Positions 7,497 through 61,429 of a DNA stretch of 64,000 bases are shown here, one piece after another. Source of the stretch: an uncultured Gammaproteobacteria bacterium. GTDB taxonomy: Bacteria > Patescibacteriota > Microgenomatia > CAZETR01 > Amesbacteraceae. Under the pieces are notes generated by a model, which saw nothing but the letters and a program-made list of their open reading frames with translations, did no database searches and was not told the origin of the DNA. The first letter of the stretch is position 1. Every line of letters starts with the position of its first letter. A program made the translations under genes and the position numbers. The stretch lies in assembly GCA_964518565.1 (NCBI GenBank), contig CAZFGX010000001.1:360409-424408 (forward strand), in the 5' to 3' direction.

Positions 7497-7826
7497 ATGG
7501 CTATTTCTCTATCCATCAAAGATACTCCAGTTCATATTGGCGATCTTGTTCGTGTACACCAACGTATTCTCGAGGCTGAAAATAAAGAACGTATTCAAAT
7601 TTTTGAAGGCTTGGTAATCAAGATTCGTGGTCGTGGAGATAGTAAAACCTTCACCGTCAGAAAAACCGGCGCCAACAATATCGGAGTAGAAAAAATCTTC
7701 CCCGTAAATTCTCCTTGGATTGCCAAAATGGAAGTTAAAAAAACTGGTCACGTCCGCCGAGCCAAGTTGTACTATATTCGCGAAAAATCAGCCCGCCAAA
7801 TCGCCACGATTACCCAACAGGCATGA
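7497..7826 (+). CDS. rplS: 50S ribosomal protein L19
   Basis: 109 aa; L19 signature ([16 protein letters not shown]...TFTVRK...[11 protein letters not shown]). Confidence 0.95.
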
Positions 7827-9451
7827 AATCGCGTCTGCTTGTCTTAAGCAGCATTCTTCTTCTCGCTATCTTCCTTCGTTTTTTCTCTCTTTCGCATACG
7901 CCAAATGGGTTTTATTGGGATGAAATAGATGTCGGCTTCCAAGCCAGATCTTTACTAGAGACTGGCAGAGACTATTTTGGAAATCCCTTGCCCCTCTTTT
8001 TACACTCAATGGCCGATTACCGTGCCCCGGTTTTGCTATATAGTGCAGTCCTCCCCAGTAAACTTTTTGGTTTTACGGTATTTAGTACTCGTCTTGTGCC
8101 CGTTATTTGGGGAATATTGGGTATCGCAGCTGCTTATGTATTGGGACAGAGCTTTCGTAAATCAGGTCTTATTTTTTCTTTCGTCATGGCAGTTAGTGTT
8201 TGGCATCTTCAGTATTCTCGTGTCGCCCAAGAACCTGTTGCCATGATTACTTGTCTCCTCATAGCAGCAGCAGCTTGGCAAAAAAGCCGTCAAAAGCCCA
8301 TTTGGTTTACTATTTCACTAGTATTTTTTGGCCTTAGCTTGTTGGCATATAGCACCGCCAAACTTTTTGTTCCTCTCTGGCTAGTAGTATTGGCTATCTG
8401 GTGCCGGCCAAAAAAAATAAGCCGGTTAGGTATTTTTGCATTCTTTTTAATTGCCATCCCGGTAGGGCTAGATTCGCTATTTGGTCACAGCGGCATGCGC
8501 TTTCACGACTTGGCCGTCTATACCAACCCAGTAGTGCCAACAGAAATCGATCAAAAACGTCTAGAAACTCAGATAGGACTAAAAAATCAGCGTACAGTCG
8601 GTATATCGCCGAGTTTGGCAGATAAATTTGCTTACAACAAGCCGGAAGAATGGGTGAGTACAATTTCCAAAAATTATCTTAGTGCTTTTTCGTCTGACTT
8701 TTTGTTTATTAAAGGAGACGTTCAACTTCGTCATTCACCGTCCAGTAACTCTATTGGCATGCTATTTGCCATAGAATCAATTGCATTAATTATTGGTCTA
8801 TTTGCCACACGCCAGCTTTCAAAGCCTCAAAAGATTTTTTTGCTTTCTTGGATCCTTCTTGCTCCATTACCCGCTAGTCTCACGCGAGACGGTTTTGCTC
8901 ATGCTGGACGTCTAATGATACTCATGCCAGCACTTCTGCTTTTAGTCGGACTGGGGCTAAAATCTCTTGCCAATTATAAATTCTTCCGTACTGTCTTTTG
9001 GCTTATTTATATAGCGACAATTGCCAATACGTATTATTTTTATTTTTCCAGATATCGATTGGAATCTGCTATTCCATTCCAATATGCCCACATTCAAGCG
9101 GCCAACGCTGCTATAGCCAAAACAGTGGAATCTGATCAGGTTATTCTAGATATGGCCGACGATTCTGGCCTGATGGCCTACATCTTTGCCAGTCATGTGA
9201 CACCAGCTCAGTTTCAAGCGAACCTGCCTTTAAAATATGTCGAAATAACCCCTGATATTCGTGGCTACGCATTTGGAAAACTTGTAGTGTTAGAACCAGG
9301 CAAACGCAATTGGACCGATCAAAAATTCAAAACCAAAACCTATATCGTCGCTTCCGCCAAAGAGCCGCTTCTGGACACATATCAACCCAAGCCAGACCAA
9401 ATCAATTATCCCGACGGTACGCCTGCGTTCTATCTCTTTTCTTCTAAGTAG
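7823..9451 (+). CDS. GT39/GT83-family (ArnT/PMT-like) membrane glycosyltransferase
   Basis: 542 aa multi-TM; N-terminal motif [28 protein letters not shown] typical of dolichyl/undecaprenyl-phosphate-sugar dependent glycosyltransferases; ATGA overlap with rplS. Confidence 0.7.
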
Positions 9452-10787
9452 TCACCTCATGCAGCAAGCCATTATTTAATCGCATTTGCCTCTGTACGCA
9501 CGCTCGGACTAAATGCTGGTCGTGTGAGACCAAAAGCAGAGTTCCTTCATATGTTTGTAAAAATCTTTCCAATGCCAAAACCGTTCGTAGATCTAGATGA
9601 TTGGTTGGTTCATCTAAGACCAAAATATCTGGATTGGTGGCCAAAAACTTTGCCAACTGCAAACGCGACTTTTGTCCGCCACTGAGCAATTTAATTGGTT
9701 GGCCAATTTGTGCCGCAGAAAACAAAAATTTTTTCAAATACGCAATTCCGTCATAATGATATATTCCCTTACTTTTTTGTAATTCCTCCAGAGGTGATAA
9801 TTGTTCATCTAATGCTGCCAAATGATCTTGGGCATAATACCCGATTCGTAGTCCTGAACCAATCTGCACAGTTCCAGAATCAGCCGATGTTTTGCCCACA
9901 ATAATATTAAGCAGAGTAGATTTCCCCGAACCGTTTGGAGCCGATATTGCTATCTTTTCACCACAAAACGCATGTAAATGCGTTCCATGTAACACATGAT
10001 TTTTGCTGTAAGACTTTTCCAATTTATCTATATACACCGCTGTTTTTTTGGCATGTTGATCTTGTATCTGAGTCTGCATGTGCACAGTCTTTTGCTCAGG
10101 TGGCTTTTCTACCATATCTCGTACCCAGCGGTCATACCGCTTTTCCGCACTGTGATATCGCCCGACAAATGCATCATTTGCTGCGGCCTGAACACGCAAT
10201 CGTTTGACCAGATCCAAAAGTCGCAATCGTTCTTTTTCTTGCACTTCCCACAAATGTTGCCGGCTGGCCATGGTATCTTCATAAATATCGCGAAATCTTT
10301 TATAGCCAAATGAATACGCCGTGACGATTGCTTCCTCCAAATGCCAAATATTATCCACTGCCTCCTCCAAAAAGGTTCTATCATGGGAAATCACTATCAC
10401 AATGCCCGAAAATTCTTTCACTAATTCCATAAACCACTGTTTGTGATCCAGATCTAGATGATTGTCCGGCTCATCCAAGAGTAAGACGTTTAAATCCGAA
10501 TAAAACAGTTCAGTAATCTTCAAAATTTTTTTCTCTCCACCTGATACATCAAAGCTATCTGACACAATTTCTTGCTCCAAATAGCCGATTTTGGTATCCT
10601 GGCTCCACAAAATTTCACCGCTATCAGCAGTTTCTCCTCCTGACAAAATTTTCAAAAGAGTCGATTTTCCAGATCCGTTGTCGCCAATCAATCCAATTTT
10701 CATCGTCCCCCGTGCCTGCAAATTCACCCCAGTAAACAGAGGTTGTACAAAACCTTTTGAAATAGTTTTTACCTGTAATTGAGCCAT
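9444..10787 (-). CDS. ABC-F family ATPase (two tandem ABC domains, no TM domain)
   Basis: 447 aa; N-terminus MAQLQVKTISKGF resembles EttA/Uup; two Walker A motifs (GLIGDNGSGKST, ISAPNGSGKST) and two LSGG signatures. Confidence 0.85.
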   Translation of the reverse strand: MAQLQVKTISKGFVQPLFTGVNLQARGTMKIGLIGDNGSGKSTLLKILSGGETADSGEILWSQDTKIGYLEQEIVSDSFDVSGGEKKILKITELFYSDLNVLLLDEPDNHLDLDHKQWFMELVKEFSGIVIVISHDRTFLEEAVDNIWHLEEAIVTAYSFGYKRFRDIYEDTMASRQHLWEVQEKERLRLLDLVKRLRVQAAANDAFVGRYHSAEKRYDRWVRDMVEKPPEQKTVHMQTQIQDQHAKKTAVYIDKLEKSYSKNHVLHGTHLHAFCGEKIAISAPNGSGKSTLLNIIVGKTSADSGTVQIGSGLRIGYYAQDHLAALDEQLSPLEELQKSKGIYHYDGIAYLKKFLFSAAQIGQPIKLLSGGQKSRLQLAKFLATNPDILVLDEPTNHLDLRTVLALERFLQTYEGTLLLVSHDQHLVRACVQRQMRLNNGLLHEVTT

Positions 10788-10831
10788 AAAAATAAAAAAA
10801 ATGCTGTGGGACAGAAATATCTATCCCACAG
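10788..10831 (-). terminator. rho-independent terminator (8-bp stem CTGTGGGA/TCCCACAG + U-tract on minus strand)
   Basis: hairpin 10804-10831 followed on minus strand by T-run (plus-strand A-run 10788-10800); sits directly upstream of ABC-F start. Confidence 0.6.
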
Positions 10832-10840
10832 CTAGTCACA

Positions 10841-11254
10841 CTAATGATTTCCTGGCAACGCTGCCCAGGTATCGTCCAAGATCTTTCTTACACCAGCCGG
10901 AATCCAGTATTCCCATGACGGACTTTTTGTCCGCAGAAAATACCCTTGTTCTGACTGAGTTCCGATCTCGAGCTGATCTACTTGGTATCGATTTTTTACC
11001 GACTTGGCCGGATCTCGCGCCTCAAACACATGAAACCAAGAAAAGTGAGCTGGTGGTTTCCCTAAATAATCACCAGATTGCTTGATCACATGATCAATAA
11101 AATTTGATCCTGGCTCAAATGCGATACGTCGACTGCAATCAAACAGATGCACCCCGCTATACACAATGCCTTTGGATACGATCACCAACAGGCGATTTTG
11201 CGGATTGTTCGGCGAACCCAAGAAAAAATATTGAATCTTCACGCATTCCTCCAA
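10841..11254 (-). CDS. hypothetical protein (137 aa)
   Basis: ORF in higher-GC block; first of five co-directional small ORFs downstream of tRNA-Lys. Confidence 0.4.
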   Translation of the reverse strand: MEECVKIQYFFLGSPNNPQNRLLVIVSKGIVYSGVHLFDCSRRIAFEPGSNFIDHVIKQSGDYLGKPPAHFSWFHVFEARDPAKSVKNRYQVDQLEIGTQSEQGYFLRTKSPSWEYWIPAGVRKILDDTWAALPGNH

Positions 11255-11305
11255 AAAGAAAAATGCGCCTGAAGCTTTGCAAAAAGCCCCAGGCGCAACG
11301 TATCT

Positions 11306-11581
11306 TTAGACATTGTGCCGATTGGCGCTGACAATAGTCGAAGCTGCCAAAGCTGTGATCGCGAGCACAATTGCCCCTATTCCACAAAACAGCGCCAAAA
11401 ACAGACGCTCTACGATTGGCACATAACCGGCTTGTCTACATATATCGACAAACAAACTACTTGGCACGCACTGTGCCAATTGATGTTGTCGGTATGCTTC
11501 CAGGCCAATCATGGCCAAAAATGCTCCTAGGAAAAAGACAAAACAAAATGCCCCCAGTGCTTGCCTTGTACCTTTGTCCAT
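11306..11581 (-). CDS. hypothetical small membrane protein (91 aa)
   Basis: ORF with 2-3 hydrophobic helices; GC about 50%. Confidence 0.35.
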   Translation of the reverse strand: MDKGTRQALGAFCFVFFLGAFLAMIGLEAYRQHQLAQCVPSSLFVDICRQAGYVPIVERLFLALFCGIGAIVLAITALAASTIVSANRHNV

Positions 11582-11594
11582 AAAGCTACCCTCC

Positions 11595-11948
11595 TTAACG
11601 AGGAATTCTCTTTTGCTTGGGTCGGTGCCAACTCATGAGTTGGTCAAAATGCCACAAGATTTCCTCGACCACTTTGGCATCACTGACCAATGCCTCAATC
11701 CACATTCGCCGAGTTCGATACAACATCAGCCGAAAACATAGATACCGTCTTGTCGCCGCCTCATGAATCGCGTCTCGCAACGCAATCGCGATTTGATCCG
11801 ATGACATAGACTTTCCTTGATGCTTCGACAGTGTCCGGCAAATTTGCATCCGGACTGGCTTTGGTAGCCAACGTGTCTTCAAACATTTCATGCAAGCTTC
11901 CACATCTTTGGGTATCACGTATCTTGAAGGTCGATTTTCACTGTTCAC
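11595..11948 (-). CDS. hypothetical protein (117 aa, Arg-rich)
   Basis: ORF only; strand choice by operon context. Confidence 0.35.
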   Translation of the reverse strand: MNSENRPSRYVIPKDVEACMKCLKTRWLPKPVRMQICRTLSKHQGKSMSSDQIAIALRDAIHEAATRRYLCFRLMLYRTRRMWIEALVSDAKVVEEILWHFDQLMSWHRPKQKRIPR

Positions 11949-12172
11949 GAAAACTTCTCCTTTTTCAGATTTTGTAACATCTGATTCATGAAAGTTGCTT
12001 GTGGATCACTACTGGGGGTAGTGTCCTCAAACATCGGTAAGGACTTCGTGGTCTCCCATAAACTGCCCATCACACGCACTCGAAAAGCCTCTTGGCCTTC
12101 AGACTCAGAATACTCAGGCAGTCCTAGGTCTTGGGCTATTTCTATCAACCGCTCCAAACAAACATCTGGCAT
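11945..12172 (-). CDS. hypothetical protein (75 aa, acidic)
   Basis: ORF only; 4-nt overlap with downstream ORF. Confidence 0.3.
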   Translation of the reverse strand: MPDVCLERLIEIAQDLGLPEYSESEGQEAFRVRVMGSLWETTKSLPMFEDTTPSSDPQATFMNQMLQNLKKEKFS

Positions 12173-12244
12173 TACGCCTCCAGAAAGTTAAGGTGCTCCG
12201 TAAAAAACGGATGAGTAATTATAGCGTAAATCCAGTTTGTATTA

Positions 12245-12592
12245 TCAGTTCTGTCGCATGTCTGCAGCTGGAAAACGTAACACACCAGTGTACCAGAGCA
12301 GGCTGTTCGCAATATTTGTCTCTTTGTCGCGAAACATTCTCTGGATTTCAGCCACTGATTCGCATACGTACAAATATTCCCGACTATCATCCATTTGACC
12401 ACAAATCAAATTGCGCAGCGGATCATCTATTTCTGGCATCTCACTCGGCAATTCGTTCAAGGCAAATGGCTTCAGATCGCGCACCAATGTCCCTTCAGAA
12501 TTTCGTCTTAGTCCCAAATTAACCATAGAGTATCGCTCCTTTGTAAAACTGCAAGTTCCGAAGAAAGTTTTCGGTAGCAAATTATACCGCAC
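12245..12592 (-). CDS. hypothetical protein (115 aa)
   Basis: ORF starting 15 nt downstream of tRNA-Lys 3' end. Confidence 0.35.
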   Translation of the reverse strand: MRYNLLPKTFFGTCSFTKERYSMVNLGLRRNSEGTLVRDLKPFALNELPSEMPEIDDPLRNLICGQMDDSREYLYVCESVAEIQRMFRDKETNIANSLLWYTGVLRFPAADMRQN

Positions 12593-12606
12593 TACAGGCC
12601 AAATTA

Positions 12607-12678
12607 GTGAGGCGACTGGGACTCGAACCCAGAACCCACAGCTTAAAAGGCTGGTGCTCTACCATTGAGCTATCGCCC
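12607..12678 (-). tRNA. tRNA-Lys (anticodon TTT)
   Basis: reverse complement GGGGCGATAGCTCAATGGTAGAGCACCAGCCTTTTAAGCTGTGGGTTCTGGGTTCGAGTCCCAGTCGCCTCA folds as a cloverleaf; anticodon loop CTTTTAA; T-arm GGTTCGAGTCC; no encoded CCA. Confidence 0.85.
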
Positions 12679-12732
12679 CAGAAGGGGTAATCTGGTCAAT
12701 TATAGCCTCTCTTTCGCTTTCCTGCACCTGAG

Positions 12733-13182
12733 TTGGCATATAAAATAGGGAGTATGGTTTGGCTAGAAGCATTCTTTTTGTTCATTTGGCTGAAGTGTAT
12801 TTGGGTAGGCGTGCACAGTAAACAGATGTTCAAACCTACTCCAGCCTTGTTTCCATTAGGCATATACGTATATGGAGACGGAATAATAGTTGGTGCATGG
12901 TGGAGTTTGTTGACACTTCTCACATTGGCTATTGGTAGTTGGGACTGGTGGGCGCTGGGAGCGTGTTGTTTTTGGTTAATTAGAGCTGGTGGGGAAGTGA
13001 TCTATTGGCTTATCGAGCAGTTTGCCGCTACACACCGAAATAATCCTAGAGACCTGTGGGGTTATCGTTGGGTAAAAGATGAATCTATTTGGTTTATATA
13101 TCAATTAATAAACCAATGTTTTATGATTTTTGCATTGCTGGGTATTTTTTATTTTGTAAAACGTATCTACTTCGGTGACTGA
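12733..13182 (+). CDS. hypothetical Trp-rich membrane protein (149 aa, about 4 TM)
   Basis: ORF between the two tRNA genes; hydrophobic segments. Confidence 0.5.
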   Translation: MAYKIGSMVWLEAFFLFIWLKCIWVGVHSKQMFKPTPALFPLGIYVYGDGIIVGAWWSLLTLLTLAIGSWDWWALGACCFWLIRAGGEVIYWLIEQFAATHRNNPRDLWGYRWVKDESIWFIYQLINQCFMIFALLGIFYFVKRIYFGD

Positions 13183-13217
13183 TATCCAGTCTTTCAGGTA
13201 TAATATATCTGTTATTT

Positions 13218-13290
13218 GGCCTTATCGTCTTAGTCCCGCAAGGCGGGACGGTAAAGTGAGTGCCAAGCACGAACGTCTCGGCTAGGACAC
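13218..13290 (+). pseudogene. partial tRNA-Glu 5' portion (acceptor/D-arm to start of anticodon stem) interrupted by a roughly 47-nt insert
   Basis: GGCCTTATCGTCT ... TCGGCTAGGACAC matches the 5' 30 nt of the downstream tRNA-Glu (GGCCTCATCGTCTAGCGGCTAGGACAC); insert carries a hairpin GTCCCGC-AAG-GCGGGAC; a TATAAT box lies about 20 nt upstream. Confidence 0.4.
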
Positions 13291-13304
13291 ATTTAAAATT
13301 TATT

Positions 13305-13376
13305 GGCCTCATCGTCTAGCGGCTAGGACACCGGGCTTTCATCCCGGTAACCGGGGTTCGATTCCCCGTGAGGTCA
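13305..13376 (+). tRNA. tRNA-Glu (anticodon TTC)
   Basis: GGCCTCATCGTCTAGCGGCTAGGACACCGGGCTTTCATCCCGGTAACCGGGGTTCGATTCCCCGTGAGGTCA folds as a cloverleaf; anticodon loop CTTTCAT. Confidence 0.85.
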
Positions 13377-13481
13377 CAAATTATATCCTATAATATTTAC
13401 TTCTTGGGCAATTTTTGCTATACTTCAGCCTCACTCTCGCGCATTGAAAAATTGTGAACTGAAACTTTTGTAGGAGGCTGT

Positions 13482-13895
13482 ATGGGAAAAAGAGCAGTAA
13501 GAAATGATAGTTTTCTCTATCGATATTGGATCTGGGATTTTCCAGAAATTAAGGCTGAAATCGAATCACTATTCGCCGAAGCGGGCACTGTCAAAATCTT
13601 GGATGACGACGAAAATTCGTTGAAAATCGAGTTGGAATTGCATAAACCACTAGCGATAGTTCGAACTAGTGGTGCAGATGGAATTATGGTAAACACCTCC
13701 ACATATACATGTGTGGGGACTAAGCCGTCGGTACATCTGTACCAGATTCCAAAAAAAGGTGATAAAACAATCATTTTTTTCATAGATCTGGAACTAGAAA
13801 CGTCGATTGAATATAAAACGCTAACACCAGACGACTTGCGCCAGGCTATCAGAAGTGTCGCGAAAGCGATGACCGAAACCTGGCACATCATCTAA
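13482..13895 (+). CDS. hypothetical protein (137 aa)
   Basis: ORF with AGGAGG-like RBS (gtaggaggctgtATG); first gene of a 4-gene cluster. Confidence 0.55.
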   Translation: MGKRAVRNDSFLYRYWIWDFPEIKAEIESLFAEAGTVKILDDDENSLKIELELHKPLAIVRTSGADGIMVNTSTYTCVGTKPSVHLYQIPKKGDKTIIFFIDLELETSIEYKTLTPDDLRQAIRSVAKAMTETWHII

Positions 13896-13934
13896 AAGAC
13901 AAAAATTCGAAGTTGAATAAAAAGAGAGGTATGT

Positions 13935-14411
13935 ATGGACGAAAAATCTTGGCAAGGAATTGCTATAACCGGACGTTGGGTCTTGGGAACAATTGCACTA
14001 TCTGTATTTGCAATCATGATACTTGTCATGATCTTTACGTATCCCTTTGTCACTCTGTTGCAGGGATATGGGATTGAAGATGTAAACAATCCAAAGATAG
14101 TCGTCATTGCATTGATCATGGTGGTCGCCTTTGTCTGCACGCTTATTTTCAATGGCAACATGATCTTTGGAAATCCTGCTCGAGATGCCGCAATATTCTT
14201 TCTCATTTCGACAGGAATCGTCTGGATATCTTTTGCTGCGAGTGGGATAAGTATGCGTCCAGAAATCGCAGATGCGGCTTGGGATGCAATGCTGTGGTAC
14301 TTTGGAATTTCGGTGTTTAACTTTCTGTTTGAGATCGTTTATTCGATCTTTATGCCCGAAAGTATTGTTGCACCTGAAACCAGTGAGCAAGTAGAAAGTG
14401 AAGGAGCGTAA
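13935..14411 (+). CDS. hypothetical membrane protein (158 aa, about 5 TM)
   Basis: ORF, hydrophobic; RBS agagagg upstream. Confidence 0.55.
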   Translation: MDEKSWQGIAITGRWVLGTIALSVFAIMILVMIFTYPFVTLLQGYGIEDVNNPKIVVIALIMVVAFVCTLIFNGNMIFGNPARDAAIFFLISTGIVWISFAASGISMRPEIADAAWDAMLWYFGISVFNFLFEIVYSIFMPESIVAPETSEQVESEGA

Positions 14412-14413
14412 AA

Positions 14414-14953
14414 ATGAAAAATACAGTAACCGCCGAAGAGATTCTTGCAAGTTTGGCACTAGACGCAGAATGGATGAAAACCCCAAGTGATATCCAAAAA
14501 GTGTTGCAACCATTCATCGGTCAATTGCCAAAACTACTGGCCGATTTGCTGCCAAAAACCGTAAATCTCAAACAGGTTTTGGATGCAAAAATCATTTTCA
14601 TCCGCTACTGTCTGGAAAATGGTTTGATTGCGGCCCTAGCGCCTAATGTCAGAAAAAATCTCAAACTTACAGTAACTCTAGATGGCGAAACATCGGCCAA
14701 TCTTACTGATATTATGGGTGACATATTTGACATGTCAGACATGATCTTAGATGCGTTGACTACTGCTTTGGAACAAGTGACCGAGCTGAGTGCAAATCTA
14801 GATTCAACACTCAAAGACTATGGTTTGACCGAACGTGAGGTATTGGTCAAGATGGGACTTAGTGGCACGACTTTAGAAAAGTATGACCGAGAGTCACTGA
14901 CATTTGCCGATCTGCTGCGCACGCAGCCAATCGTGATTGTCAAAGAAAACTAA
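14414..14953 (+). CDS. hypothetical protein (179 aa)
   Basis: ORF, 3-nt spacing from upstream gene; RBS gaaggag. Confidence 0.55.
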   Translation: MKNTVTAEEILASLALDAEWMKTPSDIQKVLQPFIGQLPKLLADLLPKTVNLKQVLDAKIIFIRYCLENGLIAALAPNVRKNLKLTVTLDGETSANLTDIMGDIFDMSDMILDALTTALEQVTELSANLDSTLKDYGLTEREVLVKMGLSGTTLEKYDRESLTFADLLRTQPIVIVKEN

Positions 14954-14969
14954 AGTATAAAGGAGAAAC

Positions 14970-15329
14970 TTGGCTACGAAAACCTTTTTTCGAGTGTTGA
15001 TTGCCGTAGTTGTTTTGCTGGTAGCTTGCAATTCCGAGCCCGCCAAAATAACTCTGGATGTGGGTGCTCAAATTCTTATTCCTGACGGGTATACGCTAAT
15101 TGGCGTTTCTTCATGGGGTGAGTTTAGTGCACATGAAACCTTCTACTGCAAAAACAACAAAACCGGACGAGCGTATGTATGTAACGACAGAACGATTAGT
15201 ACAGAAATAATTGTTCCCGATGGTTATACCTTGGTAGATGTTACAGGATGGGGGAGATTTAATTATCATCCTATCTACTACTGCCAAAAAAACGGTACAA
15301 ACGCGATTGTAGTTTGTAATCCAAAATAA
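14970..15329 (+). CDS. putative lipoprotein with two tandem roughly 45-aa repeats
   Basis: signal/lipobox LLVAC; repeat 1 ILIPDGYTLIGVSSWGEF..YCKNNKTGRAYVCN, repeat 2 IIVPDGYTLVDVTGWGRF..YCQKNGTNAIVVCN. Confidence 0.55.
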   Translation: MATKTFFRVLIAVVVLLVACNSEPAKITLDVGAQILIPDGYTLIGVSSWGEFSAHETFYCKNNKTGRAYVCNDRTISTEIIVPDGYTLVDVTGWGRFNYHPIYYCQKNGTNAIVVCNPK

Positions 15330-15460
15330 ATCAAAGCACCGAATGGGTGAGGAAAAACAAATAAGTGACGTGACCAAAATGCTTGGCCTACATCACAAGT
15401 TTGTCTTTCCTCTAAAAAACCCATGAGGTGCTTTTTTCGTTTCTGGGGTATACTTTTCCC

Positions 15461-15871
15461 ATGAATCCAATCTCTGTCCAAACTACCGTCAATGCACCTA
15501 TCGAAAAAGTTTGGGAATTTTGGAATGGAGTAGAACATTTTGCTGGGTGGGCATTTGCCTCAGACGACTGGGCAGCTGAAGGAGTAGAAAATAATGTCAC
15601 AGTCGGTGGCCAACTCAAAGTTCACAATTTTGCCAAAGATCAGAGTATGAGCTTTTATTTTCAGGGTACATATACAGTCGTGGAGCCACAAAAATTACTA
15701 GAGTTTGATCTCAGTGACACCCGTCATGTCCGAGTAGAATTTGTTCCCATAGAGGGTGGTGTCCAAGTGGTCGAGACATTTGATCCAGAAAATGAAAATT
15801 CAATAGATATGCAGCGCGCCGGCTGGCAAGCCTATCTAGACAACTTCAAAAAATACGTCGAATCGCACTAA
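15461..15871 (+). CDS. SRPBCC (AHSA1/START-like) domain protein
   Basis: motif NAPIEKVWEFW typical of Aha1-like SRPBCC ligand-binding fold; ATG at 15461 preferred over upstream GTG. Confidence 0.6.
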   Translation: MNPISVQTTVNAPIEKVWEFWNGVEHFAGWAFASDDWAAEGVENNVTVGGQLKVHNFAKDQSMSFYFQGTYTVVEPQKLLEFDLSDTRHVRVEFVPIEGGVQVVETFDPENENSIDMQRAGWQAYLDNFKKYVESH

Positions 15872-15894
15872 CTCGTTCGTGCTACCATAAATAT

Positions 15895-16683
15895 ATGGGT
15901 TGGGGCAAAGTAGGTAAAAGAATTTTGGTGCTATGTGTTTTTGTCGGCTTGGGGTTGGCATATGTGTTTGCCTCGGGTTGCAACAATGGCGATATGTTTG
16001 CTCCATTGTGTGGGTTAGGCCAACTCATGTTTTTGGCATTAGGTATTGGCCTGATCGTGGCATTTACCTTGGTCAGTCTGATCATTTTCCGCCCTTGGAA
16101 ATCCTCGGTCTCCGTACTCCCAAACAAGAGTGAGATCTTCAAATTTGTTATCACGCTTTTGTTGGCGATTCCTGTCTGTGGACTTATTTTGGGTGGCATA
16201 TTCTATGGCTATTTAGGAGTCACATTGTTGGCCGACAATCGCACCAAAACCCAAACCATAAACAATTACTCAGTCCAAAATTTCTCTGAATCCCCAGTAG
16301 TCAATCAGGTCACCAAAAAATATACCGCCATCACCGTCAAATTTACTCTGACTGCTGCCAAAGCTGGCAATTATAGTGGAGTGGTTCAGCTAGATGAGTA
16401 TTTTGGCCATTATATGACTACTCGATTCGACGGAGTCTATCTGCCGGCCAACACACCTGTACCATTTATGTTCATTCTTGAACCACAACCTGAATTTTTT
16501 ACCTCACAGGCTAATGGTCCATATTATCTCAATCTAGATATTTGGCCAGTAGATCCGGGCAGTGCGTTTCGCCATGTAAAAATTACTGGCGACAAAAATG
16601 GAACCAATACGTTAGGAGGTCCGACCAAATATATTCCTGGTCTACAAACTCGCAGCTATCTATTTACCGATTTTGCCAATTAA
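15895..16683 (+). CDS. hypothetical membrane protein with extracytoplasmic domain (262 aa)
   Basis: 3 N-terminal TM helices followed by a roughly 150-aa polar domain. Confidence 0.5.
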   Translation: MGWGKVGKRILVLCVFVGLGLAYVFASGCNNGDMFAPLCGLGQLMFLALGIGLIVAFTLVSLIIFRPWKSSVSVLPNKSEIFKFVITLLLAIPVCGLILGGIFYGYLGVTLLADNRTKTQTINNYSVQNFSESPVVNQVTKKYTAITVKFTLTAAKAGNYSGVVQLDEYFGHYMTTRFDGVYLPANTPVPFMFILEPQPEFFTSQANGPYYLNLDIWPVDPGSAFRHVKITGDKNGTNTLGGPTKYIPGLQTRSYLFTDFAN

Positions 16684-44384: not shown

Positions 44385-44768
44385 ATGAAAAAAGTATTTC
44401 ATTTCAACAATAAAAATTTATTAGAGCGTAGACGACAATTAAGAAACAACCCATCTCCCCCTGAAATAATGCTTTGGGGGAAAATAAAAAATCGCCAACT
44501 TGGCTACAAATTTATCAGACAATACAGTGTCGACGGGTATGTGATAGACTTTTTCTGTCCTAAATTACATATAGCAATAGAAGTTGACGGAAAATATCAC
44601 CAACTCGAGTCTCGAAAAAAGTATGATATATATAGAGACAAGTGGCTGCTTGCTTTCAATATAAAGACTATTCGCATACCTGCAGTTGAAATTATGAACA
44701 ATGTTGAAAAAGTTATTACTAGTTTGATCCCCCTCTTGAATCAAGAGGGGGGTGGGGGGGTGTTATGA
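44385..44768 (+). CDS. DUF559 endonuclease-domain protein (Vsr/restriction-endonuclease-like fold)
   Basis: 127 aa; motifs EIMLW, GYKFIRQYSVDGYVIDFFCP, IAIEVDGKYH typical of DUF559. Confidence 0.7.
   Translation: MKKVFHFNNKNLLERRRQLRNNPSPPEIMLWGKIKNRQLGYKFIRQYSVDGYVIDFFCPKLHIAIEVDGKYHQLESRKKYDIYRDKWLLAFNIKTIRIPAVEIMNNVEKVITSLIPLLNQEGGGGVL
44729..44760 (+). repeat. palindrome CCCCCTCTTGA-A-TCAAGAGGGGG followed by G6TG7 homopolymer tract
   Basis: near-copy of the 44360 palindrome at the 3' end of the DUF559 gene, overlapping gpmI RBS/start. Confidence 0.7.
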
Positions 44769-51202: not shown

Positions 51203-54200
51203 ATGTATCAGATTTGTAAAACAGCCAACGTCTTTCCTACTCGATTAGTCGACCGTTCGCCAACGCTTGGAATTCCAGAGAGTGACCTACTCAATAGTCG
51301 AGACGCGCTGCTAAATTTAGTAGCAGAAGCGGGTAAGTTTAGTAACGAAAAACAAGCAGACGATTGGATAGAATCTACAGCTTCGCGTATTTCTGAATTC
51401 ACCATGAGTCGTGCTCAGATCCAAGCAGAGGCTATTAAATCCAGCCTGAGTCCAGTAGTTATTAAAGATACAGTCCGTAGCATGCTTACTTCAGAACATA
51501 ATGTGGATTTCGATCAGTATTCATTGCAAACAATCGCTGCATTAGCCGAAGCTACAAATATGCCTGGTCCTTTTATGGAAAATGACCAAATTCGTGAACA
51601 TGTTATAAAACAAATTAGCTATACATATACACGCGTAGACGATGGTGTCTATTGGCAGGCCAGACGAAGTGAATGGATTAGTGCATACAAAAAATTATTT
51701 GGCGAAGATCTCGAAGCTGCTGTCAGTACAGAAGATTTGGCAAGAGTCGCAAGTCAATATTTCGATTGGTTGCGTGACGGCAATCAACTAACAAAAGATC
51801 AGATTCATATCTTAACTCGCGATAAAGACAAATTTTACCCCGGAGGTGATGTAATGAATCGTTTTATTACTCAAGAAGTATATAAATATTTAAATCAGGT
51901 AGACAAAGACACGCAAAACTTTGGCAGAATTGAACTATCATATAGAAATTTTATAAACCATCTTCGAACATTTTCCCAAGACTATTTAGACAATGACCCG
52001 ATATTGGCGAGTCCTGAGAATCCACAACTACTTGGAAATATAGAATATTTTTTATCCAGCAAAGATTTTTTACACCAACAAGATAGATTGGTTGATTTCT
52101 TACATGCTGTTGATGAGTCACTGGGCTGTCCCGTCTCACAAGAAATAAATTTAGGAATAGCATTTTTACACAGCAATATTGAATCTTTAGTAGACAATAT
52201 GCCGGAAAGTTATAAATCATACAAATCCTTAGCTGAAAAAATATCCTGCAATTTTTCATTTACACCCGAGCAAGCCAGTCAGCTAATAGCCAAATTGATC
52301 AATAAATACCAATTTTCCAACTACACCACTCCGAGAGCCCTCTCTGAAGATATAAAAAAAATGTATCAGTTGTTGGGTCAGGCGCCAGATCGAGAACGGG
52401 ATGTCATGCTTCTGACAAGAAAAGCCTACGATTCTGCCTGGGGTTCAGAAACCAAACTTGAAGAAATGCGCGATGAGTTTAGCCTGAATTATGATCCAGA
52501 TAGGCTGCAAGCAATTCAAAAAAACTGGACCAACAGATTTTTAGAGCGACCAACAGACAATGGTATGTCATTGATTGCAGCTGCAAAATATGCCGCGTTT
52601 CGACCGACAGGTGAACAAGGTGTAAGTCAAAAAGCGGTCGAATCTAGATGCTGGAGTCTACTTCGATCCAAAAACGGTATCCACCAAATTGAACTACTTC
52701 GTGAAGCAACAGGTATAACTCCCACATTCGATGATCAAAATCGTCTCAATCAAGCATATGCTGGCGCGCTTTTTGATAAAGATTTTAGTTTGTACAAATC
52801 AATTCAATCGCTGACCGGCATTCAGCCAGATTTTTCCGACCGGCAAGTAAACTCTGCTGTAAAAGGCTATATCAAATATTGCATATCAAGTAGAGGACAT
52901 GGTTTTAAGGAAACAGTTACTGAACTTAGTGAACAACTTGGAGTACCCCTAAATTATAACGAAGACGAACTTAAAGAAATTTTACGTTCGTCTTTAGGTG
53001 TGCCTCAAGAATCCAGTCCAGTCGTGAAAGAATTCTTGACTCGAATAACTGGCAAAACTGAACTGCCATTTGAAATGGTAAATGGGTCAGTTCAGTCCCT
53101 ATACCACAGGATTATTAATCGTGCTGGAAATATGGATATCATGGTTTCAAACCTACAAGAATTTACCGGTATCAAACCAGAATGGAATCAAAAAGAAGTT
53201 TTAGATTCAATGGCAGCGTTTATAAGCACTCCTTTCGTTTGCGTCAAAATAGCCGAGACAACCGGCATTAAACTTTCCATGGCTGATGAAAGTTTTATTC
53301 ATCATGTCAAAGATCAGTATATAAAATTTTTAATCCGCAAAAATACTTCTGCTGCCGAAGCATTGATTGTGGCTTTTGGTAAAGAAATAACAGTTTCTCC
53401 AGCTGATGCTGTTCAAATATTAAAAGATAATTATATATCTGCAAAAACAGATCTGACAGGCATGCTGGATCTGGTCGAACAAGCCAAAGAGGGTGGGGTA
53501 TTTTCCCTAGATGCTCAAAGGATTGACCAACTGGTTCAAGAGTGGGCCAATGTCGTATCTACGTCAGACACCACTAGTCGAGTAGGAGAACTACGTCTGG
53601 CCTGTGAAAAATTTGGCTTCTCTTATTCAAAATTATCCTCTCCAGCGCAACAAAAATTTGCCGCGTGGTTTTTGGATCCTCAGGTGGCCAACGAAGCTAG
53701 ATATTTTGCCACATCGCCAAAAACAGAAATTCAAGAGCCATTTAAACGTGAATTGGAACAAGTTCTAAAAAAGACCCTTATATCAAATTCACCAGAGCAT
53801 ATGTGCACACTGCTCGATAACGTCAAAGACAACTATCCGTCTTTGGCTGAACAAGTTCGTTCGCGAATATATATCCAATGTAGAGACAATTTGAGCCGTA
53901 TTATCGTTTTATCTGGTTTAGATGATTGGGTTCCTTTGTTGGAGACAATGGCCCCATCACCTCAAGAACGACAAAGTTTTTACGCCCAAATCATGGAAAA
54001 TCGTGTACCTAATCCAAATGAAATGGAACAATTTATTAAATATTCGTTACTCGCTGGCAAGCAAGTAGATTTAGAACAATACACCACACCATTAATCAAT
54101 AGTTTTATGTTAAACCCTCTCTCTGCTACCAGCTTCTTTTCGGTACTCGACGGTTTGTCTGAAAAAAACCCAGCCATAAAATTTTCATATTCCCAATTAA

Positions 54201-57200
54201 AAAAACATCCCTGGATCGACTCCTTTAACAAGCTTGTCCTACTCCAACGTCGTACTACTAACACAGAGCATGATCCCTGGGTGAAAGAGCTTCCTGGTTT
54301 GCTAAGCACCATCAAGTCAAATCATCAATTAGATTTTGATAGTTCAGCACAGGCTCGAGCCTTCAATCGATATTTTGAAAATTTTGGCATGTTAAACTTA
54401 CCCACTATTTTTGGCATGTATTTCGAATTAGGGACGACAGATATCAAAAACATAGATCCAAATATGCAAAAAACTCTAGCGGAAATTGGCATTGCCACTA
54501 CATTTTCAGGTGGAAAACCACGCGAAATGCAAGATATATTTGTAGATTTTGAAGCCTTTTGTCACCAGTTTCGCATTTCGCTCACCCACGATAGGCTGCC
54601 TCCTGGCATCCAGACAGCGGTAGGTCGTGAATATTACGAATATTTACGTGGCGCCTCTAGCCATTCAAGCAGTACTTATTCTACCGAACAGGTCTTGCGC
54701 CAAGTAGAAAATATGTACACCAGCCAACCAGAAAAGTACAAAGTCCCCGAATATTTACAACCTGCCACATTCACCGTCGAGTCAAAAAAAAGAAACAATT
54801 CTTCAGCCATAACCAAAGAAAAAGCCGTCGCCACCAAAAAAATTCTTGAAAGCAGTCAGTCGACCGAAGTGTTTAGAGCTCCCTATGCGGCCATGTCAGA
54901 AGCGTTTTCTACTCCTCGTACATTGTCAGAAATGCGTGATCAAGTCGTAAACACCCTTGAAGCAAAACAAACAAAAATGCTCCAAACACTAGGCTGGTCT
55001 GTAGAAAATCTAGATGTTTTATTGGCCAATTCCGAATCATCAGATAGAAAAACAGCCGGTCTAGTCGAAAATCTCAAAGGCGTCAGAACTGCTATGACAG
55101 ATATTAGACAGACCGCCAACATAGCTGTTGAACCGGGTACAGAAGCTGAAACCGGATATGTGGAACAGGTCGCTTTTTTGACAGCGTTGGCAAAAAATAT
55201 TTCTCAAGTCAAAATCGAATCACTGCGCACCGCCTCTTTGCAATTTTTTGCCTCGTTGCAGTCTCCTGAGATGAAAACTCAAATGTTGGGTATTAAAAAT
55301 TTGATCGATATAGCTGATCCAACAGGTGCGTACTACTATGCAGATGCACTAAAAAACAACGTGTTAGAACATTTCTTATTTAACACTGGCACACCTGAAG
55401 AAATACGTGCCCATTCGGGCCACCAACCATTTGATCCTGAAACTCATCATGCTATTGCCAAAGCTTTAGGGGTAAATGTTATGCAACAAGACAAACGATC
55501 AACCATCCCTATCGACGCACTACTTGACCGGCTAAAGCAGTTAGATGAAGAAACCGAAGAAGCCAGTAAAATAAAAGAAAATATATCAATGATTCCTGTG
55601 GGGGGTATTGGCCTTGTTATGGCTCCGTATTCCGGTGATATGTGCGCTTCGAAACTTGATATGGATATTGCTCGAACAACTAAATACCCTGGGCTAAATG
55701 CATATATGTATGTCACAAATGAAGGCAAGTCAAATGAAAAAATTGTCGGTAGTATGTTTGTCATGTCCACGAAAAGTGAAGATGGAGCACCGACACTTTT
55801 ATTCCGGGCAAATAATCCCCGCCAAAATTACATCAAAGATATGAATGCGGAGCAGTTTGTAAAAGCCTCCGTCGGCCATATTGTAGACGATGCTCGACGT
55901 CTCTGGGCCACTCAAGAGCCCAGAACAAAAGTCAGAGTTGTCACCCCAATTGATGGAGCTAGTCAAAGTGCCACAAATCGGCCAGATATTTTTGCCGCTA
56001 CCTTGAGTCTGTTGGGTCAACCAAAACCCATTCCGCTCGAATATTCAGAGACGACATATTTTAACCAGTATGCAAGTTACGACTCCACCCTAACTCAGCC
56101 AGGTTATAATCGTGCCAGCCGACTAGTATTTGAAATAGACAACGATGGCACAGAAACCTGGCATGCCAAACAAGATTACATGGGCATAAATAAGCAATCC
56201 GAGCATTTTCCTGCCCCTGCCTTATCTATCAAACAATTGGATTCCAACTCTGGTCGAGAAATAGAAGGTATCGCTTCAGCGGAGCTCAACTTCCGCCGTT
56301 TGCGTAGTGATAGAGACTATTCAGTATTGTCTCAAAATTCTCGTATCACCGGTTCGGAAAATTTTTCAAAATATGTCTATTTCATTGATACGGTTGGAGA
56401 AGAAGATATCCAGACATTGCAAGTCGAAGCCCCACATTGGCGATCCGTCACCTCCAAAGAACCAGAAGTAAAATTTGAATACAACTTCACGACACCAGAT
56501 GGAAATGTAATTAGCGAACCATATTTTGTAGCAAATACAAAAGGCTGTGGGTACACCAAACCCACTGCCAAAGGTCAAAATTTCGCCAACTATTCCAGTT
56601 GGACATTAGATCCAAAAAATTCCGAATCCAAAGTCTATGGATGTATTTCCGAATGGGAAGGGGAAGATACTAGTTTTTATGTCGAAAAATCAAACGAACT
56701 GACTGCAGCCGGCTTACGCTGTGAAATGAATTGGGCTACGACAAAAGTTGAAGCTTTGCCGTTTCGGGGTAAGATGCGTTCCGTAGCATGGTTAAAACAA
56801 CATGGAGTATTGCCTAATGATCCAGATTATTTCCCAGTCATAAATGTCCGTCTTCTAAAAACTAATACCCGAATAGAAGAAGCTCTTGAGGCTTCTGGGC
56901 GTCGAAAAGAAATTTTTAACGAAGCGTTTGAAACCTTTAACAAAGAACAAGCCTACAAAGGCCAGTCAGTATTTCCAGTCGAATCGCAAATTACCAAAGA
57001 TGCTTATTTTAAATTTTTCTTTGAATCGATGGCCAAAAATATGGCCGTCTTATTAAACGGGGATTATATCTATGCCGGAGATTCATCGTCACTTCACTCT
57101 TCAAATGTCAGCATGGCTGCTGAAGTAATGGATATCGATACGGTACACATAAATTCAGAAAACGCCCAAGACAATCCGGAACAATTAGTTCAAACGTTTG

Positions 57201-57493
57201 GCGTCGCATTGGGACATTTAAAAGATATGGGCAATGTTGCCACTGGATTACGTGATCTACTCAATGCTGCCGACGCAGCCAAGATCAAGTATCAAGGCGC
57301 CGAAGATTTGGTCGATATGTTTATGGCAAAGTTGGATCAAGAGTTGTCAGAAGAAAAACTTAACGTATTCGATCACAAAAAAGAGGACGTGACAAAATGG
57401 ATGGAGTGGCTACTTAGAAAGGTCGTCATCAATGGTGATGGACTTCCGTCTCTAAAGCGGGTAGATATATCAGAGTGGGGCAGAACCCGATGA
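51203..57493 (+). CDS. giant hypothetical protein (2096 aa), no signal peptide or TM segments, internal roughly 40-aa repeats
   Basis: single uninterrupted ORF of 6.3 kb; composition similar to neighbouring genes; repeated xxTGIxP modules at aa 496-710. Confidence 0.7.
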   Translation: MYQICKTANVFPTRLVDRSPTLGIPESDLLNSRDALLNLVAEAGKFSNEKQADDWIESTASRISEFTMSRAQIQAEAIKSSLSPVVIKDTVRSMLTSEHNVDFDQYSLQTIAALAEATNMPGPFMENDQIREHVIKQISYTYTRVDDGVYWQARRSEWISAYKKLFGEDLEAAVSTEDLARVASQYFDWLRDGNQLTKDQIHILTRDKDKFYPGGDVMNRFITQEVYKYLNQVDKDTQNFGRIELSYRNFINHLRTFSQDYLDNDPILASPENPQLLGNIEYFLSSKDFLHQQDRLVDFLHAVDESLGCPVSQEINLGIAFLHSNIESLVDNMPESYKSYKSLAEKISCNFSFTPEQASQLIAKLINKYQFSNYTTPRALSEDIKKMYQLLGQAPDRERDVMLLTRKAYDSAWGSETKLEEMRDEFSLNYDPDRLQAIQKNWTNRFLERPTDNGMSLIAAAKYAAFRPTGEQGVSQKAVESRCWSLLRSKNGIHQIELLREATGITPTFDDQNRLNQAYAGALFDKDFSLYKSIQSLTGIQPDFSDRQVNSAVKGYIKYCISSRGHGFKETVTELSEQLGVPLNYNEDELKEILRSSLGVPQESSPVVKEFLTRITGKTELPFEMVNGSVQSLYHRIINRAGNMDIMVSNLQEFTGIKPEWNQKEVLDSMAAFISTPFVCVKIAETTGIKLSMADESFIHHVKDQYIKFLIRKNTSAAEALIVAFGKEITVSPADAVQILKDNYISAKTDLTGMLDLVEQAKEGGVFSLDAQRIDQLVQEWANVVSTSDTTSRVGELRLACEKFGFSYSKLSSPAQQKFAAWFLDPQVANEARYFATSPKTEIQEPFKRELEQVLKKTLISNSPEHMCTLLDNVKDNYPSLAEQVRSRIYIQCRDNLSRIIVLSGLDDWVPLLETMAPSPQERQSFYAQIMENRVPNPNEMEQFIKYSLLAGKQVDLEQYTTPLINSFMLNPLSATSFFSVLDGLSEKNPAIKFSYSQLKKHPWIDSFNKLVLLQRRTTNTEHDPWVKELPGLLSTIKSNHQLDFDSSAQARAFNRYFENFGMLNLPTIFGMYFELGTTDIKNIDPNMQKTLAEIGIATTFSGGKPREMQDIFVDFEAFCHQFRISLTHDRLPPGIQTAVGREYYEYLRGASSHSSSTYSTEQVLRQVENMYTSQPEKYKVPEYLQPATFTVESKKRNNSSAITKEKAVATKKILESSQSTEVFRAPYAAMSEAFSTPRTLSEMRDQVVNTLEAKQTKMLQTLGWSVENLDVLLANSESSDRKTAGLVENLKGVRTAMTDIRQTANIAVEPGTEAETGYVEQVAFLTALAKNISQVKIESLRTASLQFFASLQSPEMKTQMLGIKNLIDIADPTGAYYYADALKNNVLEHFLFNTGTPEEIRAHSGHQPFDPETHHAIAKALGVNVMQQDKRSTIPIDALLDRLKQLDEETEEASKIKENISMIPVGGIGLVMAPYSGDMCASKLDMDIARTTKYPGLNAYMYVTNEGKSNEKIVGSMFVMSTKSEDGAPTLLFRANNPRQNYIKDMNAEQFVKASVGHIVDDARRLWATQEPRTKVRVVTPIDGASQSATNRPDIFAATLSLLGQPKPIPLEYSETTYFNQYASYDSTLTQPGYNRASRLVFEIDNDGTETWHAKQDYMGINKQSEHFPAPALSIKQLDSNSGREIEGIASAELNFRRLRSDRDYSVLSQNSRITGSENFSKYVYFIDTVGEEDIQTLQVEAPHWRSVTSKEPEVKFEYNFTTPDGNVISEPYFVANTKGCGYTKPTAKGQNFANYSSWTLDPKNSESKVYGCISEWEGEDTSFYVEKSNELTAAGLRCEMNWATTKVEALPFRGKMRSVAWLKQHGVLPNDPDYFPVINVRLLKTNTRIEEALEASGRRKEIFNEAFETFNKEQAYKGQSVFPVESQITKDAYFKFFFESMAKNMAVLLNGDYIYAGDSSSLHSSNVSMAAEVMDIDTVHINSENAQDNPEQLVQTFGVALGHLKDMGNVATGLRDLLNAADAAKIKYQGAEDLVDMFMAKLDQELSEEKLNVFDHKKEDVTKWMEWLLRKVVINGDGLPSLKRVDISEWGRTR

Positions 57494-57506
57494 TATAATC
57501 TCTCCC

Positions 57507-57830
57507 ATGTCCAAAGAATGTCCAGTCATTTCCCAGCTGCGTGAATCATTAGAGATGGATTTGCAGGTTGCCATACCCCATGTTGTAAATACACGAGAGC
57601 CGTATGTGAGTATTACGCCTCTATTGCCACTAGAGTGCCAATCTTGCAGATTCAAAGCCACAGCTGAGACCCAATTTACTGTTGGACTTCGAGGTGGAGA
57701 TATAGGTGGAGCATTCAGACAATCTGCTGGGCAATCCTGTGACCAAATCCAAAAAAATCCTGCTAACTCAAAAGATATAACTCCCACCTTGGCAAATATC
57801 GTCCGGACGATCATGACTTCGGCTAAATAA
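57507..57830 (+). CDS. small hypothetical Cys-containing protein (107 aa)
   Basis: ORF starting 14 nt after giant ORF stop; competing antisense ORF would run through a terminator hairpin. Confidence 0.35.
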   Translation: MSKECPVISQLRESLEMDLQVAIPHVVNTREPYVSITPLLPLECQSCRFKATAETQFTVGLRGGDIGGAFRQSAGQSCDQIQKNPANSKDITPTLANIVRTIMTSAK

Positions 57831-57840
57831 TAAAAATTGC

Positions 57841-57878
57841 AAAAAAAAGGCCGGACAATGCTTTCGCACTCTCCGGCC
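57841..57878 (-). terminator. rho-independent terminator (GGCCGGA/TCCGGCC stem + U8 on minus strand)
   Basis: plus-strand A8 57841-57848 then hairpin 57849-57878; downstream of minus-strand TRAM gene. Confidence 0.6.
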
Positions 57879-57910
57879 ACAGAACAATTAATTACACATT
57901 GTCGAATAAG

Positions 57911-58801: not shown

Positions 58802-59051
58802 ATTTACCTTCCATTTGTTCAACCTAATTTCTGCCGATATCCATAGTCGCAACTATGTCATCTCAGTCACAGAATCCCCATTCGGTCAGGTGGGAACCAA
58901 AAAAGCCCAAAATTTAGGCACTTTTGCTTCCCACCTGGAATATGTAATTATTGTCTGTTAAAGAGCTAAATATAGCCTCAAATTAGCCATGTTTCGCATT
59001 GAATCTAGGCCAACAGATCTATATCCTATAGTATAGCACATTTTTGCCTGC

Positions 59052-59080
59052 TTGGCAACTTGTCAGCCTGGGTGTATATA
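59052..59080 (+). promoter_or_regulatory. sigma70-like promoter TTGGCA-17-TATATA
   Basis: ATG at 59089 only about 8 nt downstream, suggesting a leaderless/short-leader mRNA; ATCCTATAGTAT motif 20 nt upstream. Confidence 0.45.
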
Positions 59081-59088
59081 TAGGACAA

Positions 59089-59406: not shown

Positions 59407-59412
59407 ATTCCA

Positions 59413-59450
59413 CAAAAAAAGCGCCTGTGGATCTTTAGGATCCGCAAGCG
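59413..59450 (-). terminator. rho-independent terminator (about 12-bp stem, U7 on minus strand)
   Basis: GCGCCTGTGGATC...GATCCGCAAGCGC hairpin with plus-strand A7 upstream; between convergent genes. Confidence 0.6.
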
Positions 59451-59459
59451 CAAACGAAA

Positions 59460-59756: not shown

Positions 59757-59761
59757 CCTCC

Positions 59762-60202: not shown

Positions 60203-60216
60203 CCTCCTTATCTTGT

Positions 60217-61424: not shown

Positions 61425-61429
61425 AGCAC

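Follow-up and report, generated by a model that had tools for sequence, protein, structure and literature searches.

Additive flexible genomic islands have been described at tRNA genes of Alteromonas, where they carry cassettes that are near-identical across diverged genomic backgrounds (Lopez-Perez and Rodriguez-Valera, 2016; PMC4898812). Here, we compare these and other mobile or exchangeable systems with a block of five small genes, named A to E, in a 64-kb stretch of DNA (contig CAZFGX010000001.1; this whole stretch of 64,000 nucleotides (nt) is called the window) from a Microgenomates-type Patescibacteria genome of ~1 Mb. The block lies on the minus strand between the 3' end of a tRNA-Lys gene and a gene for an ABC-F ATPase, and its last gene, E, is enclosed by two intrinsic terminators, T1 and T2. 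The composition of the block is atypical, its occurrence is lineage-restricted, its divergence from related strains is mosaic, and the boundaries of the mosaic are sharp. From these features we infer a horizontal origin and recombinational exchange, and we give about even credence to the reading that the block is a small flexible (accessory) islet, horizontally acquired and recombining. So read, it is overall a small flexible islet of an ordinary kind, in which one gene is unusually variable.

The process behind such an islet can be outlined in a few steps. The islet is located where synteny breaks down, between tRNA-Lys and the conserved cluster of ABC-F, PMT_2, L19 and DnaE genes. A narrow clade would have gained it by horizontal transfer in its recent ancestry, and it would at present be reshuffled among strains and neighbouring species by recombination, without a resident integrase. 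Gene E together with T2 would act as a replaceable cassette with two old allele classes.

The resemblance to the Alteromonas additive islands (PMC4898812) lies in the tRNA-adjacent position at a synteny break, in a content of mostly hypothetical small genes, and in a segment, B to D, that is near-identical across a diverged core (synonymous divergence, dS, 0.013 vs 0.27), with a history uncoupled from the core phylogeny. In contrast to these islands, the islet is tiny, with five genes in 1.75 kb, has no integrase and is without the direct repeat of a tRNA fragment that marks many such insertions; furthermore, no variation in cassette number was seen among the three lineages, which are mostly fragments. 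The likeness to replacement flexible islands, such as the O-antigen and glycotype clusters (PMC4898812; Lopez-Perez et al., 2014, cited therein), concerns E and T2, which occur in two deeply diverged versions at the same position, with sharp boundaries in conserved flanks and with one version of E common to different species. Unlike those islands, E is a single cytoplasmic protein of 133 amino acids (aa) and not a surface-polysaccharide cluster, and its versions are still homologous. Two marks of flexible islands, different content at the same position and a cassette history uncoupled from the core, are thus found at this locus.

Classical tRNA-integrated islands with a tyrosine integrase share with the block the location directly 3' of a tRNA, the co-directional small genes and the shifted base composition, but the block lacks an integrase, attL/attR repeats and genes of phages or of conjugation, and no phage or plasmid homology was found. 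Integron cassettes provide another parallel, as E is a promoterless single-gene unit between hairpin-forming sequences and appears to be exchanged as a unit. In contrast to integrons, however, T1 and T2 are perfect-stem intrinsic terminators with T-tracts, no IntI gene is present within 10 kb, and there is no cassette array. Inspection by eye revealed no GTTRRRY core in the hairpin region of T1 or T2. As regards diversity-generating retroelements, no reverse transcriptase family was found among the neighbouring genes and no repeat of the E sequence in the window.

The features of the locus, in the direction of transcription, are the following (pI, isoelectric point):

12607..12679, minus strand: tRNA-Lys (UUU), co-directional with the block and immediately 5' of it (ARAGORN, Rfam)
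12245..12526, minus strand: gene A, 93 aa, acidic (pI 4.7), ATG start with AAGGAG 9 nt ahead
11945..12172, minus strand: gene B, 75 aa, acidic (pI 4.4), ATG start with a GGAGG Shine-Dalgarno motif
11595..11948, minus strand: gene C, 117 aa, very basic (pI 10.3), GTG start with AGGAG
11306..11581, minus strand: gene D, 91 aa, ATG start with an AAGGAGG Shine-Dalgarno motif
11264..11297, minus strand: terminator T1, 15-bp stem and T-tract, -29 kcal/mol, z -6.5, closing the A-D unit
10841..11242, minus strand: gene E, 133 aa, GTG start behind GGAGG
10803..10832, minus strand: terminator T2, 13-bp stem and T-tract, -25 kcal/mol, z -6.9
9444..10787, minus strand: ABC-F ATPase gene, conserved flank, outside the islet

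The tRNA-Lys(UUU), with anticodon ttt, was called by ARAGORN and by Rfam (72 bits). Both also place a tRNA-Glu(UUC) on the plus strand at 13305-13377, and over 10-14 kb Rfam gave no match beyond these two tRNAs. The block begins 80 nt past the 3' end of tRNA-Lys, and all its genes run in the direction of this tRNA. A Shine-Dalgarno motif can be read from the sequence 4-9 nt ahead of the start codon of each of the five genes, the stop of B overlaps the start of C (GTGA), and an independent Logan assembly yielded five gene calls identical to A-E. A preliminary description of this DNA had reported a minus-strand tRNA-Lys ending at 12607, five co-directional open reading frames after it, and a rho-independent terminator placed against the ABC-F start. 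These statements stand, with the lengths given above for Shine-Dalgarno starts, and the T-tract of T2 indeed extends up to the ABC-F ATG at 10787. Terminator T1, the stronger of the two, had been overlooked. It separates D from E and divides the block into two units, A-B-C-D and E, of which the second is closed by T2. T1 also delimits the variable E cassette on its 5' side, and it is kept in the related contigs L084 and, as far as the sequenced part is concerned, L092.

Mosaic divergence among closer lineages

Two contigs from closer lineages overlap the block. The first, L084 (GCA_020050275.1, 1914 bp), holds the end of B, genes C and D, T1, an E gene, T2 and half of the ABC-F gene, and the second, L092 (612 bp), holds the 3' arm of T1, an E gene, T2 and the start of ABC-F. 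Between the window and L084, the segment from the end of B to T1 has 98.8% nucleotide identity, and the last 28 residues of B are identical (0 differences in 85 nt). In the ABC-F gene the same pair shows 92.4% nucleotide identity, with a dS of 0.274 and a ratio of non-synonymous to synonymous divergence (dN/dS) of 0.06. In E, only 55% of the nucleotides and 39% of the amino acids are identical (dN 0.55, dS saturated), and the differences are spread over the whole gene. Identity falls from ~99% to ~55% in the T-tract of T1, and recovers at T2 and the ABC-F ATG.

Two allele classes of E can thus be distinguished: E1 in the window, and E2, of 134 aa, in L084 and L092, which is 39-43% identical to E1 at the amino acid level. 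Both occupy one position, between T1 and ABC-F, in the window, L084 and L092. In E, identity is 55% between the window and L084, 54% between the window and L092, and 82% between L084 and L092; in the T2 region, the respective values are 75.5%, 73.1% and 100% (49/49), and at the ABC-F start they are 94%, 68% and 69%. On these short contigs, E and T2 therefore group L084 with L092, and ABC-F groups L084 with the window. The switch between the two groupings occurs at the ABC-F ATG, so that the boundary on the ABC-F side is sharp within a few bases. Relative to L084 and L092, the stem of T2 in the window is preserved via compensating changes.

These comparisons indicate that E and T2 form a cassette bounded by two terminators, in which T2 would travel with the allele class of E, and that three segments within 2 kb probably have three different histories. 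As the tree of E and T2 contradicts that of ABC-F, the E-T2 cassette must have been replaced by recombination at least once, and the near-identity of B-D in two strains with a diverged core points to a recent shared origin of the B-D segment.

It is possible, although doubtful, that the block instead consists of small genes that are passed on vertically and specific to their lineage, a poorly sampled clade of the Candidate Phyla Radiation (CPR), with E evolving fast, C and D constrained, and the codon oddity resulting from short length and weak expression. Family-less small genes abound in CPR genomes, the genes beyond the tRNAs (12.7-17.8 kb) also lack a family match, and mobility genes are absent. 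Furthermore, the block, or at least T1-E-T2, is present in three lineages, down to ~81% ABC-F amino acid identity if L092 represents the lineage of L090, from a sister sample. Constraint at the protein level, however, cannot explain a 20-fold synonymous difference between C (0.013) and ABC-F (0.27) in the same strain pair. The conflict between the two trees likewise speaks against vertical descent, as do the displacement of third-position base composition in all five genes together and the lack of fast evolution of E within its allele class (dN/dS 0.067).

A mosaic of this kind could also arise as an assembly artefact, in which chimeric contigs join co-occurring strains and no real cassette exchange has happened. 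L084 and L092 are short and stem from highly fragmented metagenome assemblies, and the Logan contigs of the window organism break repeatedly at tRNA-Glu, which points to a tangled assembly graph. We nevertheless regard an artefact as highly unlikely: in each of two independent assemblies, E2 runs on into T2 and a diverged ABC-F start, the boundaries coincide with the edges of genes and terminators and are not placed arbitrarily, and the divergence of L084 climbs gradually, from 0/85 nt in B over 1/354 nt in C to 6/276 nt in D, without an abrupt switch. Because of the continuity of E2, T2 and ABC-F in two assemblies, E1 and E2 are best seen as alternatives at one locus.

Contigs of three separate Logan assemblies (L001, L082 and L083) all end inside tRNA-Glu, at window positions 13341-13383, which suggests strain variation or a repeat-induced assembly break. 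In SRR29476910 (a 67.6-kb contig) and SRR29476927, the right-hand flank is 100% identical to the window over the 10.5 kb and 1.4 kb compared, respectively, and the left-hand proteins (the 142-aa protein, A-E, ABC-F, PMT_2 and DnaE) are not on record for either.

Base composition, coding capacity and selection

The content of guanine and cytosine (GC) of the block is 45.5%, compared with 42.2% for the window; the standard deviation (SD) among same-sized windows is 1.8%, and 2.8% of those reach a value as high. GC at third codon positions (GC3) amounts to 0.43-0.49 in all five genes, which corresponds to the 93rd-98th percentile of 61 window genes (mean 0.377, SD 0.044). When the codons of the block are pooled, GC3 is 0.464 vs 0.375 (z 4.1), a value that only 0.5% of codon runs of equal size attain in the rest of the window, and the codon-usage scores of A-E range from the 0 to the 15th percentile among window genes. 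Atypical composition, by which flexible islands are recognized, is therefore present at this locus. The preliminary description had assigned about 50% GC to the block and roughly 40% to its surroundings. Sliding-window analysis showed the first value to be overstated, and the second is closer to 42%; its example, 50% GC at 11281-11340, is a correct figure, but this 60-mer includes part of the G+C-rich stem of T1. Its claim of a composition above that of the surroundings was borne out by codon-usage analysis, in which the shift proved real at synonymous sites.

The pattern of changes between lineages is informative on the coding capacity of the block. Between the window and L084, gene C has one synonymous and no non-synonymous change in 118 codons (dS 0.013), and gene D has four synonymous and two conservative changes (dS 0.064). 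The E2 alleles of L084 and L092 differ with a dS of 1.12 and a dN of 0.075 (dN/dS 0.067), so that E appears to be under strong purifying selection within its allele class, as expected of a constrained protein. Owing to the Shine-Dalgarno starts in all five, the identical gene calls in an independent assembly and the bias towards synonymous changes, A-E are regarded as coding genes, and sequence comparison indicates that they are real and under selection.

By contrast, it is barely credible that A-E are chance non-coding frames in an intergenic spacer. Such frames would be in keeping with the lack of homologues in family libraries and with the low codon-usage scores, but not with five starts that each carry a Shine-Dalgarno motif, nor with annotated frames that outscore both shifted frames in codon usage in every gene. 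The changes in C and D are predominantly synonymous, and E1 and E2, at 39-43% identity and with the low dN/dS within E2, preserve length and aromatic core positions; on these grounds, the chance-frame reading appears already refuted for C, D and E. The preliminary description had allowed for the open reading frames turning out non-coding on closer inspection, which does not apply to these three genes, with their mostly synonymous changes and the conservation of E. Its proposal of a decayed remnant is also a poor fit to Shine-Dalgarno sites in five of five genes, near-invariant C and D, and a dN/dS of 0.07 in E.

Synteny and the tRNA-Lys junction

On one side, the block is flanked by genes for ABC-F, PMT_2, L19, DnaE, GatB, an MFS transporter and GatA, and on the other by a gene for a 142-aa membrane protein, tRNA-Glu and a run of family-less genes. 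Three more distant contigs, L088, L089 and L091, retain the downstream cluster, and their ABC-F proteins are 65-70% identical to that of the window. Their gene orders are:

L089: ABC-F, PMT_2, L19, DnaE
L088: PMT_2, ABC-F, L19, DnaE, GatB, MFS, GatA, GatC
L091: ABC-F, L19, and a truncated downstream gene at the place that DnaE has in the others

Upstream of ABC-F, these contigs carry a gene for a Cho-like nuclease (L088, L089) or for a pentapeptide-repeat protein (L091), and neither a tRNA nor a homologue of A-E was found there in any of the three. Synteny thus breaks at the block, which L088, L089 and L091 lack. Contigs L085-L087 have no synteny with the window locus. As the relatives have no tRNA-Lys beside ABC-F, the ancestral state was not a tRNA-Lys/ABC-F arrangement with a simple insertion between the two. 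The position of PMT_2 relative to ABC-F varies, being downstream in L089 and upstream in L088. In the window, the ABC-F gene (minus strand) and the PMT_2-like gene (plus strand, 7823-9451) are convergent and overlap by 8 nt at their 3' ends (9444-9451).

The preliminary description had interpreted the block as a decayed, integrase-mediated island in the tRNA-Lys 3' end, that is, a remnant of a prophage, integrative element or satellite whose integrase and att repeat have since been lost. Several observations agree with this: the block begins 80 nt from the 3' end of tRNA-Lys and runs in the same direction, its composition is atypical, syntenic relatives lack it at the corresponding place, and tRNA genes are frequent insertion sites of islands (PMC4898812). 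However, no recombinase or integrase family was found in A-E or their neighbours, nor among the precomputed Pfam hits for the genes from position 1 to ~23.9 kb of the window. The tRNA-Lys 3' end (22-nt and 17-nt queries) matched only itself within the 64-kb window, even when up to three mismatches were allowed, and no relevant direct repeat flanks the block in 9000-16000. Comparison with phages, plasmids, PHROGs and viral contigs revealed no similarity, and the genes show no decay, being intact and subject to selection. As the relatives lack a tRNA-Lys beside ABC-F, the tRNA may have come with a rearrangement and may not have been its target. We therefore consider an integrase-mediated island unlikely.

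What had been said on this junction was in part correct. No integrase or att duplication is visible, as noted then, within the ranges given above, and the comparison with relatives showed that L088, L089 and L091 lack A-E. Of the term "island remnant", the notion of accessory, horizontally exchanged DNA holds, on account of composition, absence in relatives, discordant history and the sharp ABC-F-side edge, and the notion of decay does not. Integration at the tRNA-Lys 3' end has nothing in its support, as there is no integrase, no att-like repeat and no tRNA-Lys in the syntenic relatives.

The reading of the block as a flexible islet has to be weighed against several observations that count against it. 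The compositional shift is modest, the E2 alleles have a genome-typical GC of 42.5%, and other small genes of the window also show deviant codon use. Deviant codon use is frequent in short, weakly expressed genes. Strains were compared by means of two short contigs from metagenomes, and part of the mosaic could stem from chimeric assembly. With ABC-F identities of 65-70%, the syntenic relatives are far removed from the window organism, and ordinary rearrangement could account for their differing upstream neighbours. No mobility gene or site is present. Only one genome shows gene A, the greater part of B and the junction with the tRNA, so that no empty site was observed.

If the block is a flexible islet, Patescibacteria genomes of ~1 Mb, although mobilome-poor, would still keep tRNA-adjacent flexible islets that are exchanged across strains and species by recombination alone. 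The maintenance of one gene as two ancient alleles would be a signature of frequency-dependent selection, for example in phage or host interaction, and the locus would be useful as a marker for following strains of the clade and would supply a candidate small protein of immunity or defence that is new. With three lineages only, the finding is minor and descriptive.

Predicted proteins, promoters and other regions of the window

No significant match to A-E was found in Pfam, PHROGs, NCBIfam or PADLOC, in agreement with the earlier statement that recognizable domains are missing, and the E2 alleles matched no toxin, antitoxin or defence family in Pfam, NCBIfam or PADLOC. Sequence searches of the PDB with A, B, C and E gave no genuine match; hits of A to RecA fusion chains were rejected as repeat-inflated. 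In phage and plasmid collections, blastn matched only the tRNA and tblastn with A-E matched nothing, and scans of viral contigs returned no genuine relative of A-E. Apparent viral-contig relatives of D proved spurious, since only 25 residues of its second hydrophobic segment matched and no reading frame covered them. Scans of Joint Genome Institute (JGI) metagenomes with C and with the E alignment found no relatives, and the rest of the window contains no paralogues of A-E.

The deep homology search of block proteins covered E only. Exhaustive HMMER search with E against 1.84 billion representatives recovered E itself and one cluster of 134 aa, P0130 (43% identity, E-value 3e-26). Matches to a 2891-aa cadherin-like repeat protein and to a 230-aa repeat protein were rejected, again as repeat-inflated. 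A word-indexed protein search with E missed the E2 alleles, despite their 39-43% identity, and negatives from that search are accordingly weak. All nine proteins that were looked up (A-E and four neighbours, DnaE included) belong to clusters at 90% identity with only 1-2 members. The nearest named ABC-F homologues are 45-57% identical and come from metagenome-assembled genomes of Patescibacteria, Microgenomates and Amesbacteria.

Gene C has a weak, sub-threshold HTH_20 match at residues 31-57 and is predicted to be all-helical, in a low-confidence AlphaFold single-sequence model (predicted local distance difference test, pLDDT, 55) for which Foldseek found nothing below E = 1; it may be regarded as a candidate small DNA-binding regulator. 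According to hydropathy, D is a small membrane protein with two hydrophobic segments, at about residues 8-26 and 60-83. E is soluble, without signal peptide or transmembrane segment, and its AlphaFold single-sequence model (pLDDT 45) is too poor for use. Speculatively, on physico-chemical properties and the population pattern alone, C could act as a DNA-binding regulator and D as a membrane component, and E could be a cytoplasmic protein with a specificity or immunity-like role, its polymorphism being maintained by frequency-dependent selection. A more far-reaching proposal, which seems quite unlikely, is that A-E constitute an uncharacterised CPR-specific module, e.g., of the phage-exclusion or immunity type, with E and T2 as a specificity cassette swappable across species. 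Expression of ABC-F would possibly have been made dependent on read-through of T2, which would couple retention of the islet to a housekeeping gene.

The region ahead of ABC-F differs between lineages. In L085, L086, L088 and L089, a TAnAAT box is located 6-7 nt upstream of the ABC-F ATG and no Shine-Dalgarno site is present, an arrangement that looks like a leaderless-type promoter. In the window (10788-10802), L084 and L092, the T-tract of T2 reaches the ABC-F ATG, and neither the TAnAAT box of the relatives nor a Shine-Dalgarno site is found. The islet thus seems to have displaced the ancestral ABC-F promoter. With the promoter displaced, transcription of ABC-F through T2 read-through becomes possible, and the gene may be transcribed in this way.

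Perfect TATAAT hexamers occur on the minus strand at 12581-12586 (between tRNA-Lys and A), at 12218-12223 (upstream of B) and at 12699-12704, the last one 19 nt upstream of the tRNA-Lys 5' end. As candidate -10 boxes, they may provide the tRNA, gene A and the B-D genes each with its own promoter; no -35 match was found at these hexamers, and a consensus promoter scan did not call them.

Three other regions of the window deserve mention. At 44385-44768, inside a long plus-strand gene run, a 127-aa gene of the DUF559 family (Vsr-like restriction-endonuclease fold) stands out by a low GC (35.7%) and by unusual codon usage; it may represent a small inserted element of a selfish or defence-related kind. 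The region 57470-63908 is a second stretch of family-less minus-strand genes with raised GC, and the highest-GC region of the window; six genes scanned there gave no significant Pfam match. It includes an open reading frame of 313 aa (57911-58852) with 49% GC and a GC3 of 0.49, which has the lowest codon score of all window genes. Next to it, at 51203-57493, lies an open reading frame of 2096 aa, and giant proteins such as this are typical of CPR genomes.

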